Assembly: GCF_058153355.1 (NCBI RefSeq) | Contig: NZ_CM177019.1 | DNA: 64,000 bases | Reading direction: 5' to 3' (one strand) | Notes under the pieces: model-generated | The model's database searches: none | Told to the model about the DNA's origin: nothing | What the model saw: only the letters and a program-made list of their open reading frames with translations | Shown here: one piece after another, positions 40,991 through 48,002 of the stretch | Numbering within the stretch: the first letter of the stretch is position 1 | How the letters are laid out: each line of letters opens with the position of its first letter | Program-made: the position numbers and the translations under genes

Positions 40991-41099
40991 AAAAAAAGCC
41001 CGAACGACTGTTCGGGCTTGTCTTCTTATATGTTGGAAAATCAGTGGCAATGCAATGGCCCAACAGAAAATAAAATCTGTGACAATAAAGGCATATAAC
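40991..41099 (-). ncRNA. micC: MicC sRNA (Hfq-dependent repressor of ompC/ompD)
   Basis: minus strand reads GTTATATGCCTTTATTGTCACAGATTTTATTTTCTGTTGGGCCATTGCATTGCC...GCCCGAACAGTCGTTCGGGCTTTTTTTT, recognised as MicC; terminator shared with ydbK. Confidence 0.85.
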
Positions 41100-41326
41100 C
41101 CGCGCAGAATAACGTATAGCAAATTAAAAGTATAATTTTTATTTTGTATGTATTATCTTCGATACATTCACCAGACTTATTATCATTTCAGAGGAATTAT
41201 TTGATTAAGGTTTTACTTAAGGCGTAACAAATGATATTTATCGGCTAACTGAACTTCTCCTTTAGGATGTTTTCATTCCCCGAAATGGGGATAAAAGGCA
41301 AATAAAATAACTAAAGGATTTATTCA

Positions 41327-42460
41327 ATGAAAAGCAAAGTACTGGCACTTTTAATTCCTGCCCTGCTCGCCGCAGGTGCTGCACATGCAGCCGAAGTTTA
41401 TAATAAAGACGGCAACAAATTAGATCTGTATGGCAAAGTTGATGGCCTGCATTATTTTTCTGATAATTCAGCGAAAGATGGCGACCAGAGCTATGCGCGT
41501 CTGGGTTTTAAAGGCGAAACCCAAATTAACGATCAACTTACTGGCTACGGTCAATGGGAATACAATATTCAGGCAAACAACACTGAATCTTCAAAAAACC
41601 AGTCATGGACCCGTCTGGCATTTGCCGGACTGAAATTTGCAGATTACGGTTCTTTCGATTACGGACGTAATTATGGCGTAATGTACGACATCGAAGGCTG
41701 GACCGATATGCTGCCTGAATTTGGCGGTGACTCTTATACCAATGCAGACAACTTTATGACTGGTCGTGCCAATGGCGTCGCGACTTATCGTAACACTGAT
41801 TTCTTCGGTCTGGTAAATGGTCTGAACTTCGCGGTGCAGTATCAAGGTAACAACGAAGGAGCCAGTAATGGTCAGGAAGGCACCAACAACGGACGTGATG
41901 TTCGCCATGAAAACGGTGACGGCTGGGGTCTTTCCACAACATATGATTTAGGCATGGGCTTTAGCGCTGGTGCGGCATACACCTCTTCTGACCGCACCAA
42001 TGACCAGGTTAACCATACTGCGGCTGGTGGTGATAAAGCAGACGCGTGGACTGCTGGGCTAAAATACGATGCTAACAATATTTACCTGGCAACCATGTAT
42101 TCAGAAACGCGTAATATGACCCCGTTTGGCGACAGCGATTATGCTGTTGCAAACAAAACCCAGAACTTTGAAGTCACTGCACAGTACCAGTTTGATTTTG
42201 GTCTGCGTCCGGCAGTCTCTTTCCTGATGTCTAAAGGCCGTGACCTGCACGCTACCGGTGGTGCAGACAACCCGGCAGGTGTTGATGATAAAGATCTTGT
42301 AAAATACGCCGATGTTGGCGCGACTTACTATTTCAATAAAAATATGTCCACTTATGTTGACTATAAAATCAACCTGTTGGATGAAGATGACAGTTTCTAT
42401 GCTGCTAACGGCATCTCTACCGATGATATTGTCGCTTTAGGTCTGGTTTATCAGTTCTAA
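41327..42460 (+). CDS. ompN: outer membrane porin N
   Basis: 377-aa ORF with signal peptide and porin C-terminus (...VALGLVYQF); matches OmpN. Confidence 0.95.
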
Positions 42461-42468
42461 ATCCTCCT

Positions 42469-42493
42469 GCCCGCTGTTATGGCGGGCTTTTTC
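42469..42493 (+). terminator. rho-independent terminator of ompN
   Basis: GCCCGC-TGTTATG-GCGGGC hairpin followed by TTTTTC. Confidence 0.65.
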
Positions 42494-42519
42494 TGCTTAT
42501 TCTTCCTCCTTTGATCTAA

Positions 42520-43035
<516 letters not shown>

Positions 43036-43042
43036 CACTAAC

Positions 43043-43067
43043 GCCCGCACATTGCTGCGGGCTTTTT
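43043..43067 (+). terminator. rho-independent terminator of uspF
   Basis: GCCCGCA-CATTGC-TGCGGGC hairpin followed by TTTTT. Confidence 0.65.
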
Positions 43068-43123
43068 GATTCATTTCGCAAATGTGCTGACATTTTCCCC
43101 TCTAATCATTACAATTTAAATTT

Positions 43124-43735
43124 ATGAATTATGCATTGATAATCGCTATTATAATATCGTTCCCCTGTGCATTATTATCAGTTTTTCTGGTATTAAAAGA
43201 CTGGGCGCTAATAGGAGATGCAATGAACCACGCAATGTTTCCTGGCATAGTTCTAGCCTGGATTATAGGTATGCCGCTGGGAATTGGTGCATTTATTGTA
43301 GGACTGTCTTGTGCAATTGCAACTGGCTATCTGAAAGATAATAGCATCATAAAGAAAGATACCATTATAGGTATCGTTTTTTCAGGAATTTTTGTCTTGA
43401 CTATCAACAGGCACAAGTCAGCGGATTACAGATATCATTATTACATTACGGTTTACTCTGCATGGTATCGCCTACCATTTTTGCCACATTAAAAGCAGTC
43501 GGAATTATTCTGTCTATATACTATTAATAGCTCCAGGGTCTATTGCTGTCCTCATCACGCATCGCTTTCATAAGACATTACTTATCGCCGTAACGATATC
43601 AATAACAATATCAGGCGTATGGTTATTATATTTTCTCGACAGAGCCCCAGCGCCGACAATCGTCCTCTTATTTGCTGTAGCATTTCTTTTCGCGCTTATA
43701 ATAATCAATTTTCGGAAACAATAATCTCAACAGTA
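43124..43735 (+). pseudogene. decayed ABC-3 family (Mn/Zn/Fe) transporter permease gene, frameshifted and internally truncated
   Basis: frame of 43124..43492 encodes an ABC-3 permease-like N-terminus (DAMNHAMFPGIVLAW, TIIGIVFSGIFVLTI); permease-like C-terminus (LLIAPGSIAVLITHRFHKTLLIAVTISITISGVWLLYFLDRAPAPTIVLLFAVAFLF) continues in another frame to stop at 43733..43735; AT-rich. Confidence 0.5.
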
Positions 43736-44991
43736 GAATAAAGAGGCAAATCAATCATTACATATATAAGATGGTGCTAATATTGCACCGCCTTTAAATT
43801 GAACTTTATCCTTTCACCCTTACACAATTTAAGGAATGCAGATGACTATTTTATCAGCACCCAGCCTTTTTCCTGGTAATCGAAAACTTGAAAATCATTA
43901 ACTCTAAGAAATTCTGCCAAATCGTTGAAATTACTTTAAATTAGACTCGAACAAATCAACCCCTGATGGGGCTTTTACTTATCCATTTAATCGGGTATAT
44001 ATCGACCTCCATCTGCCCGCCTCAGATTCGTACCTGGTGGAGGTCTTTTTTCGTTACCTCTTTCCCCCTTTAGTTCAGTATAAAATCATCAAACTAATGC
44101 TGTTCACACTATTTACCTCCAGCATTCTATATAAATAATAGAAATAAAAACCCCAATACATAGTGCATTGGCATGACCAAACATCAATGCCATTATACTC
44201 GCCTCTGTTAAATACTCGCTAGTTAATATGATAGGCACGCATGATATAACAATCCATATGCTAATACATAAATACACCAGTATTTTTCTCATAGTCAGTC
44301 CCTGTGATTAACAATCAAGGCATAGTTAAGCATATTTCACATTCAAACGTAAACATTATTAATAACATTATGTCAATCGAACTGACATCACGATTCAAGC
44401 CCTCTTCAGACTGAAGGCTAGAGCAGCGTAGAACATTTCAAAACAATACACTGAAAAAATACTTGAACAAAAAACTTAATTCTTTTTTATTGTGAACTTT
44501 AGTAATTTTGTCATGCAACTCTTTATTACATTTAGGCCTATCTTATTTCATGGCAACGCAAATACAGGACCATTTCTTGTGCTATGGATAAGTAATAAGC
44601 TAGTTACATCTTATTAAGAGAACCATTTTCACATATCAAAATATCATCACCACCCACAATGAATTAAGTATTTTTCTTATTCTTTAGATTAGATACGTAA
44701 TGAATCCCTAACTCCATTCGGGTGTCATGGCTCTTTCATTTGAAATACATTCATATCCAATGTAATATTTCTATGCGCAAATATAACTACCGACCATACT
44801 CATCATTTATTACAGAGAATTATTTTATTCACCGAAAAGTTTCACAAAATATCCCCTGATAGAAAACTAAAAAACACTGCATAATATCGCTATTCTGGCA
44901 CTTGCGAAAAATTATATTCTGCACCTGTTGTAGCGTTCTATTTCTCCGCCTGGCAACGAATGCACAATGTCCGCCACAGTTTCTGTTCTAA

Positions 44992-45309
44992 TTTCTTCCT
45001 GTGTTACCGCATCCTGTACGGGTAGCGCAACACCAGCATGCTAAGCAAGGCTTTCCCATCAGATTTCACTACGACTATTTGGGAGCGAGATGGAATGCAG
45101 CAGTAAAACGTGCTGGTATTCGCCGCCGTAATCCGTACCATACGCGACATACTTTTGCCTGCTGGCTGTTGACGGCAGGAGCGAACCCGGCATTTATAGC
45201 CAGCCAGATGGGGCATGAAACTGCGCAGATGGTGTATGAAATTTACGGTATGTGGATTGATGACATGAACGACGAACAGGTAGCTATGTTGAATGCGCGG
45301 TTATCGTAG
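44992..45309 (+). pseudogene. 3' fragment of a tyrosine-recombinase (Rac-type prophage integrase) gene
   Basis: open frame encodes only the integrase C-terminal catalytic region (RRNPYHTRHTFACWLLTAGANPAFIASQMGHETAQMVYEIYGMW) with no N-terminal domains; directly upstream of ttcA where K-12 carries intR. Confidence 0.7.
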
Positions 45310-45360
45310 TTGCAAAGTTTGCCCCCAATTTGCCCCATTTAGTACCAGAGAACTGAAATA

Positions 45361-46296
45361 ATGCAAGAAAATCAAAAGAATACGAAGAAAGAGATATACA
45401 ATCTGAACAAATTACAAAAACGTCTGCGTCGTAACGTGGGCGAAGCCATTGCTGACTTCAATATGATTGAAGAAGGCGATCGCATCATGGTTTGCCTCTC
45501 CGGGGGTAAAGACAGCTATACCATGCTGGAGATTCTGCGCAATTTGCAGCAAAGCGCGCCAATCAATTTTTCGCTGGTGGCTGTTAACCTCGATCAAAAG
45601 CAACCGGGCTTCCCGGAACACGTTCTGCCCGAGTATCTTGAAAAGCTGGGCATTGAGTACAAGATTGTGGAAGAGAACACTTACGGTATCGTGAAAGAGA
45701 AGATTCCGGAGGGCAAAACCACTTGCTCACTGTGTTCTCGTCTTCGTCGCGGAATTCTTTACCGTACCGCAACGGAACTGGGAGCGACGAAGATCGCGCT
45801 GGGTCACCATCGTGACGATATCCTGCAAACGTTGTTCTTAAATATGTTCTACGGCGGCAAGATGAAAGGTATGCCTCCGAAACTGATGAGCGATGATGGC
45901 AAACATATTGTGATTCGTCCGCTGGCCTACTGCCGCGAGAAAGATATTCAGCGCTTTGCCGATGCAAAAGCGTTCCCGATTATTCCTTGCAACCTGTGCG
46001 GTTCACAGCCTAACCTGCAACGTCAGGTGATTGCTGACATGTTGCGTGACTGGGATAAACGTTATCCGGGGCGTATCGAGACGATGTTCAGCGCGATGCA
46101 GAATGTGGTGCCGTCGCATCTGTGCGATACCAACCTGTTCGATTTCAAAGGCATTACCCACGGTTCTGAAGTGGTTAACGGGGGTGATCTGGCGTTTGAT
46201 CGCGAAGAGATCCCTCTACAACCGGCGGGTTGGCAGCCTGAAGAAGATGAAAATCAGTTGGATGAGTTACGACTGAATGTGGTGGAAGTGAAATAA
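45361..46296 (+). CDS. ttcA: tRNA-cytidine(32) 2-sulfurtransferase
   Basis: 311-aa ORF with PP-loop SGGKDS and CxxC motifs; matches TtcA. Confidence 0.95.
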
Positions 46297-46304
46297 CCCG
46301 GATA

Positions 46305-46376
46305 GCGCCCGATGCGCAAGCTTATCGGGCTACTCTTATGGAGGCCGGATAAGACGCGGCCAGCGTCGCATCCGGC
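46305..46376. repeat. REP/BIME-like palindromic units between ttcA and dbpA
   Basis: two palindromes, GCGCCCGATGCGCAAGCTTATCGGGC and GCCGGATAAGACGCGGCCAGCGTCGCATCCGGC, the latter a classical REP consensus. Confidence 0.6.
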
Positions 46377-46424
46377 AATCCCGAAGAAGATGTTTACTCT
46401 TGCACCCTGCGATTCAACATTTCA

Positions 46425-47798
46425 TTATTTTAATAACCGCACCCGGCACGTTTTTCCTTTAATTTTACCGCCCTGTAACTGTTTCCATGCTTTATGAGCA
46501 ACAGCCTGACGCACCGCGACATAGACATGCGCCGGATGCACGGCGATTTTGCCAATATCTGCGCCATCAAGCCCGATATCTCCTGTCAGCGCACCTAATA
46601 CATCACCCGGGCGCATTTTGGCTTTTTTCCCGCCATCGATACATAACGTTGCCATTTCTGCTTCCAGCGGCACAATGGAACTATTAACTGGCGGCGTTTG
46701 CCAGTTAAGTTTTATCTGCAACATGTCAGAAATGATATTGGCCCGCTGTGCTTCTTCCGGGGCACAGAAACTGATCGCCAGACCGCTATTTCCTGCACGC
46801 GCTGTACGCCCGATGCGATGTACATGAACTTCAGGGTCCCACGCCAGTTCAAAGTTCACTACCAGCTCAAGCGATTTAATATCAAGACCACGCGCAGCAA
46901 CATCCGTCGCAACCAGCACACGAGCGCTACCGTTAGCAAAACGTACCAGGGTCTGATCGCGGTCACGTTGCTCCAGATCGCCATGTAACGACAATGCACT
47001 TTGCCCTATGTCATTCAGCGCGTCGCAGACAGCCTGACAATCTTTTTTGGTATTGCAAAACACCACGCAAGAGGATGGCTGATGCAAACTTAATAACCGT
47101 TGCAACAGCGGAATTTTGCCTTTGCTGGATGTCTCATAAAATTGTTGTTCAATGGGAGGCAGAGCATCTGTTGAGTCAATTTCAATCGCCAATGGATCGC
47201 GTTGAACTCGTCCGCTGATTGCGGTGATGGCTTCCGGCCAGGTTGCCGAAAACAGAAGCGTCTGTCGAGATGCTGGCGCAAAACGGATAACATCATCAAT
47301 GGCATCGCTAAATCCCATATCCAGCATGCGATCGGCTTCATCCATCACCAGCATATTCAACGCATCCAGTGATACCGTGCCTTTTTGCAGATGGTCCAGC
47401 AAACGCCCCGGGGTTGCCACGATAATATGCGGCGCATGTTGCAACGAATCACGCTGCATACCGAACGGTTGACCACCGCACAAAGTCAAAATTTTGGTAT
47501 TTGGCAGAAAACGCGCCAGCCGACGCAATTCACCTGCCACCTGATCCGCCAGTTCACGCGTAGGGCACAGCACTAAAGCCTGGGTCTGAAATAGCGACGC
47601 ATCAACTTTCTGTAGCAGCCCGAGGCCAAAAGCCGCCGTTTTGCCGCTGCCGGTTTTCGCCTGCACGCGAACATCTTTTCCGGCAAGGATCGCCGGAAGC
47701 GCGGCAGCCTGCACCGGCGTCATAGTTAAATAACCCAACTCATTAAGGTTCGTGAGTTGGGCGGGAGGCAAAACATTCAGGGTAGAAAAAGCGGTCAC
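46425..47798 (-). CDS. dbpA: ATP-dependent RNA helicase DbpA (DEAD-box, 23S rRNA-specific)
   Basis: 457-aa ORF with AKTGSGKT Walker A and DEAD motif (MDEADRM); matches DbpA. Confidence 0.95.
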   Translation of the reverse strand: MTAFSTLNVLPPAQLTNLNELGYLTMTPVQAAALPAILAGKDVRVQAKTGSGKTAAFGLGLLQKVDASLFQTQALVLCPTRELADQVAGELRRLARFLPNTKILTLCGGQPFGMQRDSLQHAPHIIVATPGRLLDHLQKGTVSLDALNMLVMDEADRMLDMGFSDAIDDVIRFAPASRQTLLFSATWPEAITAISGRVQRDPLAIEIDSTDALPPIEQQFYETSSKGKIPLLQRLLSLHQPSSCVVFCNTKKDCQAVCDALNDIGQSALSLHGDLEQRDRDQTLVRFANGSARVLVATDVAARGLDIKSLELVVNFELAWDPEVHVHRIGRTARAGNSGLAISFCAPEEAQRANIISDMLQIKLNWQTPPVNSSIVPLEAEMATLCIDGGKKAKMRPGDVLGALTGDIGLDGADIGKIAVHPAHVYVAVRQAVAHKAWKQLQGGKIKGKTCRVRLLK

Positions 47799-47828
47799 AA
47801 TCTGTTCTCGTGGTCATCGACGCAAAAA

Positions 47829-48002
47829 TTAGCAAGCGCGTATCCTCGCAGATCTACGCTCACGATGCGACAATTTAATCGGTTCTTCATCGGGTGGTGG
47901 GTCAGGCATGGGTTGCGGGCGAGGGATTGGATCGGGCACTGGAACAGGATCGCCAGGAATCGGTTCAGGGACAGGAATTTGCAAATAAATGAGTGTCGTC
48001 AT
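47829..48002 (-). CDS. candidate small proline-rich protein (57 aa)
   Basis: ORF MTTLIYLQIPVPEPIPGDPVPVPDPIPRPQPMPDPPPDEEPIKLSHRERRSARIRAC with strong SD (GGAGGG, 5-nt spacer); below ORF-track cutoff, translated by hand. Confidence 0.3.
   Translation of the reverse strand: MTTLIYLQIPVPEPIPGDPVPVPDPIPRPQPMPDPPPDEEPIKLSHRERRSARIRAC

Follow-up and report, generated by a model that had tools for sequence, protein, structure and literature searches.

What occupies the attachment site of the Rac prophage when uspF and ttcA lie close together on the chromosome? We analyzed a 64,000-nt window of contig NZ_CM177019.1 (assembly GCF_058153355.1), in which the stop codon of uspF at 43035 and the start of ttcA at 45361 leave 2325 bp between them, in agreement with the ~2.3-kb gap given by a first-pass annotation of this DNA. 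The same annotation had placed a 23-kb Rac prophage between ttcA/intR and ynaE-ttcC-uspF of K-12, an order that we found to be correct for K-12, and had called the site in the window empty, interpreting it as the deletion scar of a Rac-like element and not as a naive attB. The site is in fact occupied by a remnant, and every check that had been proposed for the scar interpretation supported it. We conclude that positions 43108-45410 are very probably the decayed skeleton of a Rac-like lambdoid prophage.

The GC content of 43036-45360 is 31-39%, compared to ~50% in the flanks, so that the interval is AT-rich as first described. Its description as largely non-coding was overstated, since fragments of phage and cargo genes are present, and the recombinase stub next to ttcA, initially listed as the sole phage-like coding sequence, is accompanied by remnants of ydaW, lygF/DUF977 and hok (ydaW', lygF' and hok') and by a sitD-like pseudogene (sitD'). 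All recognizable phage and cargo genes in the interval are fragments or pseudogenes, and one 59-codon ORF is intact. The features, with the basis of each assignment, are as follows.

43036..43107, plus strand: bacterial side of the old attachment site (97.4% identity to the flanks of K-12, O157, ISHS7 and Rac-SA53, through 43115)
43108..43725, plus strand: sitD-like Fe/Mn ABC-3 permease pseudogene (nucleotide match to ISHS7 sitD; protein matches to SitD and PF00950)
43726..44002, no strand: unassigned AT-rich DNA with two small hairpins (homologs only in the ~1044 scar-bearing genomes)
44003..44100, minus strand: hok/gef-family toxin pseudogene (78.6% identity to Rac-SA53 hok)
44113..44292, minus strand: 59-codon ORF, predicted small membrane protein (ORF list)
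44293..44845, no strand: unassigned AT-rich DNA, ~31-33% GC (matches only in scar-bearing E. coli, none in the phage collection)
44846..44973, minus strand: lygF-like fragment, DUF977 in PGAP (70.5% identity to Rac-SA53 13060-12933)
44951..45072, minus strand: ydaW-like fragment, DUF1627 in PGAP (86.6% identity to Rac-SA53 ydaW, 12447-12336)
45079..45309, plus strand: 3' stub of a Rac-type integrase, 76 codons and stop (tblastn against IntR; Pfam PF00589; 99.3% identity to Rac-SA53)
45310..45360, plus strand: phage-derived 51-bp spacer, P arm of attL (agrees with K-12 and Rac-SA53 at SNPs where LF82 and CFT073 differ)
45361..45410, plus strand: phage-supplied ttcA 5' end including the 26-bp att core (comparison with Rac-SA53 attP and TtcA N-termini)

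A tblastn search with IntR returned the stub at E=1e-48 over residues 331-411, of which residues 336-411 constitute the genuine match, with 75 of 76 positions identical and a single I-to-V change. The stub reads toward ttcA and terminates at 45309, leaving 51 bp between the two, a layout also seen in K-12 and Rac-SA53. The first-pass annotation had thus correctly recognized a C-terminal recombinase fragment oriented as intR is in K-12, but its ~100 codons (44992..45309) reduce to 76: the ORF carrying the stub spans 45001-45309, and its first 26 codons are not integrase and overlap the opposite-strand ydaW/DUF1627 fragment. This frame is not part of any longer intact gene. Of the 172 positions of the Pfam Phage_integrase model (PF00589), only 112-165 are matched; the HxxR, H and Y motifs are kept and the box I arginine is absent, the box I region of IntR (..SGLRHGEL..) lying upstream of residue 336. 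The stub therefore lacks the complete catalytic domain of an active tyrosine recombinase and, judged from its sequence, the integrase is dead.

When compared with Rac attL, the segment comprising the integrase 3' end, the spacer and the ttcA 5' end (45078-45500) showed 99.3% identity to Rac-SA53 and 96.5% to K-12 Rac. The Rac att core is present inside ttcA, at 45385-45410 (AAGAAAGAGATATACAATCTGAACAA), where it falls within codons 9-17; it is of the Rac-SA53 attP form, one base off the annotated site. The ttcA gene itself is intact (311 codons), with a phage-type N-terminus and a phage-type upstream region. On the opposite side, homology to the attR/ttcC flank ends at 43107-43115, and a search of 43036-45330 for a second att core or a ttcC copy gave only weak, AT-rich matches at chance level. 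Of the two attachment sites of a prophage, attL and attR/ttcC, attL alone is thus kept. The missing second core and ttcC, together with the stop in right-side homology, indicate a fixed remnant and not a prophage, and this remnant cannot excise because it has no active integrase, no xis and no attR.

Could the site nevertheless be a naive attB that was never occupied, its integrase-like frame having arisen by chance or belonging to a host gene? The short distance between uspF and ttcA relative to K-12 is all that favors this explanation, the probability of which we consider next to nil. It is refuted by the identity of the stub to the IntR C-terminus and to Rac-SA53 DNA, and by the existence of a real empty site of different sequence. 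In Rac-free strains, uspF and ttcA are separated by a clean 175-bp spacer and not by the same scar, and TtcA has a different N-terminus (MSQNQEIS), the protein starting MSQNQEISKKEQYNLNK; this form corresponds to the K-12 ttcC side joined to ttcA, with identical sequence. The window, with 2325 bp and another N-terminus, differs on both counts, and its 2 kb do not align to the core DNA of Rac-free strains.

The empty form was found in 2489 of 5426 complete E. coli genomes (46%), the commonest single arrangement counted, and also occurs in E. whittamii and two unnamed Escherichia species. From this distribution we infer that the empty form is ancestral and the scar derived. The 175-bp spacer holds an older integrase relic, the first half of which ("relic0a", ..KCADIFPSN..) persists in the window at ~43080-43107, downstream of the uspF terminator hairpin (43043-43062), and is broken off after TCTAATC. 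A candidate promoter of the empty form, CTGACA-17-TACCAT, lies inside this relic and is 2.25 kb from ttcA in scar strains. We also considered whether the empty form could have arisen from the 2.3-kb form through a deletion between the TAATC motifs at 43103-43107 and 45129-45133. This route was ruled out, since downstream of TAATC the empty form carries another, diverged integrase relic and a ttcA 5' end unlike that of the window, and since other Escherichia species share the empty form.

Inside the remnant, ydaW', lygF' and hok' follow the order and orientation of Rac-SA53 (integrase 823-2058, ydaW 11878, lygF 12656, hok 17873). The phage-derived coding sequence of ydaW' covers 44951-45061, and a PGAP pseudogene is called at its position in LF82, CFT073 and N1420. 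Identity of lygF' to DUF977 genes from E. coli prophages is 74-79%, and this fragment also matches the ydaW/LygF region of vB_EcoS phages. The match of hok' to Rac-SA53 is short (56 nt, 44003-44058), and thousands of genomes carry a hokD with 82-84% identity to hok'; the fragment retains the C-terminal half only, with an in-frame stop (VTKKDLHQVRI*GGQMEVDIYP). With a partial, interrupted hok and no Rfam family over threshold in 42400-46400 (E<=1; no sRNA called), the locus holds no intact hok/sok type I toxin-antitoxin system. Sub-threshold Rfam matches comprised STnc420 at 44445-44495 and naRNA4/REP downstream of ttcA. Distant blastn searches of 43712-44850 and 43116-45078 in 5426 E. coli genomes and a phage collection of 50,697 records matched only sitD, hokD, DUF977 and DUF1627, leaving ~1 kb of the interval with no assignable origin in these sets, and none of five small ORFs from the AT-rich DNA had a PHROG match below E=0.06.

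At the uspF end, sitD' matches ISHS7 sitD in two blocks at 66-68% nucleotide identity. It lacks its first 8 codons (the left junction falls at about codon 9), carries a 171-nt internal deletion and is spread over three reading frames; PGAP labels it "metal ABC transporter permease, frameshifted". A functional SitD would be an uninterrupted frame of ~280-285 codons within a sitABCD operon, and here sitABC is absent. In some strains, the sitD remnant forms a 199-codon open frame (P0001).

The low identity of sitD' raises the question of whether the left half, that is sitD' and the AT-rich DNA, is an independent "PAI sit" island that arrived next to uspF by a non-phage route and is unrelated to the stub. 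PAI sit does occur at several chromosomal locations, with rearrangements ascribed to homologous recombination (PMC7545054). Against this, ISHS7 carries an intact sitABCD at the same locus, inside a Rac-like prophage, ~350 bp from attR, adjoining uspF and in the orientation of sitD'; sitABCD is documented as tail-end cargo of prophages (PMC2808357); and between sitD' and lygF', where phage order would place it, there is a hok fragment, which is typical of a lambdoid nin region. We therefore regard an island origin of the left half as very unlikely.

How could a Rac-like prophage have been reduced to this skeleton? The phage would have integrated via an IntR-type tyrosine recombinase at the 26-bp core inside ttcA codons 9-17, bringing with it a replacement ttcA 5' end, a step established for Rac and here read from the sequence. 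The junctions, compared with reference phages, point to several illegitimate deletions, of which the sequence fixes neither the number nor the order. One loss of ~11.3 kb, extending from codon 335 of the integrase into mid-ydaW, would have removed the N-terminal three quarters of the integrase, xis, recET, kil, the repressor and the replication genes, and a further ~0.5 kb would have disappeared within ydaW-lygF. Loss of the nin-to-tail region would have left the hok fragment and the ~1 kb of unassignable AT-rich DNA. Finally, removal of ttcC (the right attachment site), sitABC and sitD codons 1-8 would have fused sitD' to the older integrase relic downstream of uspF. The remnant would since have been inherited as plain chromosome, and homologous recombination in the flanks could shift it between lineages.

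Neither this sitD allele nor the ~1 kb of unassigned DNA turned up in an intact relative in either collection searched (5426 E. coli genomes; 50,697 records of phages), so that we infer a single-prophage origin from gene order only. Identities to Rac-SA53 are uneven (99% for the integrase, 87% for ydaW', 79% for hok' and 71% for lygF'), which could reflect mosaic phage genomes, fragments of different age or the presence of several elements. The last of these corresponds to a composite of at least two successive elements, for example an older sitD'..hok' and a later tandem lygF'-ydaW'-int', merged by deletions. Consistent with such a history, identity to reference phage genes spans 66% to 99%, tandem occupation of the site occurs in N1420, the attL block has been replaced in the lineage of the window, and the still older integrase relic documents serial use of the site. 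However, a single pass along one Rac-like genome would yield all fragments in the order and orientation observed, no internal ttcC or core copy or second integrase fragment marks a boundary, and lambdoid mosaicism alone can account for the uneven identities; a composite is possible, if unlikely, and we favor descent from one prophage.

The scar is present in ~1043 of the 5426 complete E. coli genomes (19%), at 80% or more of its length and with 98-99% identity. CFT073, LF82 and E2348/69 are among the carriers and show the same PGAP pseudogene calls. Its best-conserved part consists of the stub, the spacer and the ttcA 5' end, the stub having 0-1 mismatch in 231 nt compared to LF82 and CFT073. 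The attL block from 45285, inside the stub, to 45395, in the core, is of the SA53 type in the window and in 7 of the ~1046 scar genomes, and of the K-12 Rac type in LF82 and CFT073. In N1420 a ttcA 5' end and the core come after the scar, with a CDT-IV lambdoid prophage next to them in tandem, and the retained core can, on this evidence, still capture new Rac-like phages.

Selection might account for this conservation if it kept the stub and spacer as the upstream or promoter region of ttcA, or the 59-codon ORF for a function of its own. The high conservation itself and the removal of the empty-form candidate promoter to 2.25 kb from ttcA are in line with the former, and the latter agrees with the ORF being intact in all four scar sequences compared (window, LF82, CFT073 and L006), with one change, V6M. 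A scan for sigma-70-like consensus sites on the plus strand of 45000-45360, covering stub and spacer, found no promoter-like site, though, and a young scar together with gene conversion with incoming phages would explain the conservation equally well. The 59-codon ORF is restricted to E. coli, hypothetical wherever annotated, absent from the PGAP annotation of the RefSeq records checked, and matches no PHROG or other family. Maintenance by selection thus seems unlikely.

A more elaborate proposal, which we consider distinctly unlikely, is that the scar serves as a landing pad that can be used repeatedly and that contains its own eviction arm. The attL core would take in a Rac-like phage, as the N1420 tandem illustrates, and RecA could then delete the incoming phage by way of the resulting ~350-bp repeat (stub, spacer and ttcA 5' end). 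Only a swapped attL/ttcA 5' block would then stay behind, and the window and 7 of the ~1046 genomes carry such a block. If selection maintained this arrangement, it would amount to a device that passively restricts stable lysogeny at ttcA and repeatedly rewrites the TtcA N-terminus.

Whatever its later history, the decayed prophage that we favor means that the Rac site of strains such as CFT073, LF82 and E2348/69 is not empty but holds a fixed remnant, which is housekeeping knowledge. Liu et al. (2015; PMC4632033) noted CFT073 as an exception to their TtcA grouping, with no rac-like prophage in ttcA; its TtcA N-terminus is K-12 Rac-type, and the scar explains this exception. E. coli TtcA has at least three N-terminal variants and two unrelated upstream regions, a diversity relevant to the carbenicillin phenotype that is reported to depend on TtcA. 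Three successive occupations have left their mark at the locus: an integrase relic predating the radiation of the genus, then the scar, then present-day prophages. The site is thus a convenient natural series in which to study how prophages decay and how att sites are reused. We found no prior description of the scar in the literature on Rac, ttcA, uspF, remnants and Rac-SA53. Since about one-fifth of E. coli genomes carry it, the scar is an ordinary, though tidy, case of prophage decay, a kind of feature already known, and it leaves the current understanding of prophage biology unchanged.

The scar can be compared with several known systems. Like the empty ttcA attB (Liu et al. 2015, TtcA' form), it retains the body of ttcA, the terminator of uspF and the older integrase relic, the latter as its first half; where the empty site has the 175-bp spacer and MSQNQEIS, the scar shows phage debris amounting to 2325 bp and an N-terminus of phage type. 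In sit-bearing Rac-like prophages, namely ISHS7 at this locus and prophage 042p3 of EAEC 042, sit lies between attR and the tail-fibre genes (PMC2808357), adjoining uspF and running in the direction of sitD' in the window; these prophages have an intact sitABCD, whereas the scar has lost sitABC and attR and keeps a degraded sitD only. With K-12 Rac (intR..ttcC, 23 kb), for which the biology of the 26-bp att core has been described (PMC4632033), the scar has in common the core at the ttcA 5' end, the family and orientation of the integrase, the 51-bp spacer and a ttcA rebuilt with a phage-supplied N-terminus (PMC4632033). K-12 Rac differs in having an intact intR, xisR and both att sites and in still excising, while the scar is left with 76 integrase codons and attL; the N-terminus of K-12 TtcA is MQENQQIT..EQY, and the core and N-terminus in the window represent another allele. 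Rac-SA53 (KU052037), an inducible phage that encodes LT-IIa, is 99.3% identical over 45078-45500, has the same attP-type core and is collinear for ydaW, lygF and hok; it differs from the scar as a complete 52-kb prophage record with no sit genes, to which the internal fragments of the scar are 71-87% identical.

In the window, ompN (41327-42460) is followed by uspF (ending at 43035), a gap of 2325 bp, an intact ttcA of 311 codons (45361-46296) and dbpA on the minus strand. The gene order of K-12 at this locus is the reverse, and the K-12 annotation confirmed the placement, made in the first-pass annotation, of the 23-kb Rac prophage between ttcA/intR and ynaE-ttcC-uspF; the measured gap likewise bears out its estimate that uspF and ttcA lie only ~2.3 kb apart here. 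Around the locus two stretches are homologous to K-12, 41001-43115 (with uspF) and 45078-48000 (with ttcA), which leaves ~1.96 kb of the gap with no counterpart at the K-12 locus. The GC content of the gap is 31-39%, compared to ~50% in the flanks. Just downstream of ttcA, sub-threshold naRNA4 Rfam matches were seen on both strands at 46343-46381, in what looks like a palindromic element of the REP type.

The integrase-like fragment is oriented toward ttcA as intR is in K-12, as had been proposed, and in both, 51 bp separate its stop codon from the start of ttcA. Its extent had been overstated at ~100 codons from 44992: ORF 45001-45309 matches IntR in its last 76 codons only (45079-45309, IntR residues 336-411), where a single residue differs conservatively, and the 26 codons preceding these overlap a phage gene fragment of opposite orientation. 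Of the 172 positions in the Pfam Phage_integrase model, the stub covers only 112-165. It retains the motifs HxxR, H and Y but not the region of the box I arginine (..SGLRHGEL..); the catalytic core has thus been lost and the fragment cannot be active.

This stub had been taken for the only phage-like coding in the gap. Comparison with phage Rac-SA53 (KU052037) showed that fragments of ydaW, lygF and hok are also present.

Matches of the window to Rac-SA53
45078-45500, integrase 3' end, spacer and ttcA 5' end, 99.3% identity (K-12 Rac, 96.5%)
44951-45061, ydaW, 86.6% identity
44846-44973, lygF, 70.5% identity
44003-44058, hok, 78.6% identity

The first match identifies the ttcA-side boundary as a Rac attL, and the order and orientation of the integrase, ydaW, lygF and hok pieces are those of one Rac-like genome. 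The hok segment, translated from the minus strand, gives VTKKDLHQVRI*GGQMEVDIYP, where Hok has VTRKDLCEVRIRTGQTEIAVFT; hokD of thousands of E. coli genomes is 82-84% identical to it. PGAP marks three pseudogenes in the gap of LF82, CFT073, N1420 and FDAARGOS_1372, namely a frameshifted metal ABC transporter permease, a DUF1627 fragment and an integrase fragment. About 1 kb (43726-44002 and 44101-44845) stayed unassigned in genome, phage and PHROG comparisons. Within it, a 59-codon ORF on the minus strand (44113-44292), preceded by a plausible Shine-Dalgarno sequence, encodes a predicted small membrane protein. The ORF is intact in every scar sequence compared, with V6M as the sole change across LF82, CFT073 and one Logan contig; it was found in E. 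coli only, annotated as hypothetical only, with no PHROG match. Strain FEX669 (NZ_CP065152, O150:H6) carries an IS200C element inside the scar (3667302-3670338).

The uspF side of the gap holds a permease pseudogene that aligns to sitD at 66-68% nucleotide identity in two blocks (43107-43394 and 43397-43711). Internally it lacks 171 nt, its homology falls in three different frames, and approximately the first 8 codons have been lost at the left junction. In some strains (two Logan contigs; protein P0001) the frame of this remnant is open over 199 codons and gives an ABC-3 Pfam match, whereas the window and the RefSeq strains are frameshifted. Strain ISHS7 has an intact sitABCD at the same locus, in the order uspF, an old integrase relic, ttcC, att core, ~350 bp, sitABCD, a diguanylate cyclase and tfaR-stfR-lom-J of a Rac-like prophage. 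This order places sit as cargo just inside attR, and its orientation matches that of sitD' in the window. Given this position and the fragment order, the gap reads as one collinear skeleton: [attR, sitABC deleted]-sitD'-...-hok'-...-lygF'-ydaW'-int'-attL-ttcA. We infer a single-prophage origin, as well as the number of deletions.

Rac recombines site-specifically through IntR/XisR at the core, replacing the 5' end of ttcA (PMC4632033, PMC6379469), and we assume that this holds for the scar. The core in the window's ttcA (45385-45410, AAGAAAGAGATATACAATCTGAACAA) has the attP form of Rac-SA53 apart from one additional SNP, and the encoded TtcA has a third type of N-terminus, distinct from MQENQQITKKEQYNLNK in K-12 and from the ancestral MSQNQEIS.... 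The gap, which has lost attR, contains no further copy of the core or of ttcC, and neither xis nor an active integrase; the remnant therefore cannot excise. Liu et al. (2015, PMC4632033) sorted the N-termini of TtcA according to whether rac is present, and treated CFT073 as the exception, since it has no rac-like prophage in ttcA. CFT073 carries the scar together with a K-12 Rac-type N-terminus, so that the scar accounts for this exception. The region's best match to a promoter (CTGACA-17-TACAAT, 10/12 matches; window 43087-43115, O157:H7 TW14359 locus 1888-1916) lies across the left deletion junction and is directed toward sitD'. Its -35 element is also present in the empty form, where it is paired with TACCAT, ~95 nt upstream of ttcA. 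In scar strains, ttcA may have been cut off from this candidate ancestral promoter.

Among a spread set of 5426 complete E. coli genomes, three main forms of the locus were found. An empty form, with 175 bp between uspF and ttcA and a TtcA beginning MSQNQEISKKEQYNLNK, is present in 2489 genomes (45.9%); its sequence is what results when the uspF-ttcC side of K-12 is fused to ttcA at the core. The window's form is present in about 1043-1046 (19%), and the remainder mostly carry an intR prophage. CAVP776 (NZ_CM176338, 6336-12408) has uspF followed by IS1, an MFS transporter, a gamma-glutamylcyclotransferase and a LysR regulator, with no ttcA nearby, and so appears to be a different rearrangement. 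All three other Escherichia compared (E. whittamii, Escherichia sp. E1V33 and Escherichia sp. MOD1-EC7003) have the empty form, which makes the 2.3-kb form the derived state and settles the choice between a deletion scar and a naive attB in favor of the scar, as first proposed.

The 175-bp "empty" spacer itself contains a degenerate integrase C-terminus (1880-2011 in the TW14359 locus), whose stop codon directly abuts the ttcA ATG. It reads ..KCADIFPSNPYHTRHSF.. against ..KRAGIRRRNPYHTRHTF.. in IntR, and tblastn gave 26.9 bits (E=3e-6), compared to a maximum of 18.9 bits over 200 shuffles. Since this relic is conserved in E. whittamii and two other Escherichia species, the first scarring of the site predates the diversification of the genus. 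Its first half is retained in the window at ~43080-43107.

N1420 (NZ_CP176489, 15001-32325) has, beyond the scar, a ttcA 5' stub and the core, then GTAAGGGCAAAAATC... and a lambdoid prophage with cdtABC (CDT-IV) and an omptin gene; the scar's attL core thus still serves as attB for a new phage. At 45285-45395 (stub 3' end, spacer and ttcA 5' end) the window has the SA53-type sequence, and LF82 and CFT073 have the K-12-Rac type; to the left of 45285 the stub is essentially identical in all three. Only 7 of ~1046 scar genomes have the window's block, which is bounded by the core on the right and ends inside the stub on the left. This suggests that a second phage may have integrated site-specifically and then been lost when its integrase gene underwent homologous recombination with the stub; we infer that the block was swapped through RecA-mediated eviction. 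Further right, 45600-48000 (ttcA 3' half, dbpA and ynaL) is a rare allele, at least 99% identical in only 18 of 5402 genomes and diverging 3-7% from K-12, LF82, O157 and FDAARGOS_1372. It is common to the window and 2013C-4282, which has an empty site, and the window's flanks are nearer to this strain than to other scar strains compared, such as FDAARGOS_1372 and N1420. This pattern indicates that scar and flanks were reshuffled between lineages by homologous recombination. Judged from these alignments, the window appears to be a mosaic, matched by no genome among those compared.

Our literature search found no paper describing the remnant as a Rac-like scar; pieces of it are already flagged as pseudogenes in RefSeq. 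The feature belongs to a well-known class, that of fixed prophage remnants.
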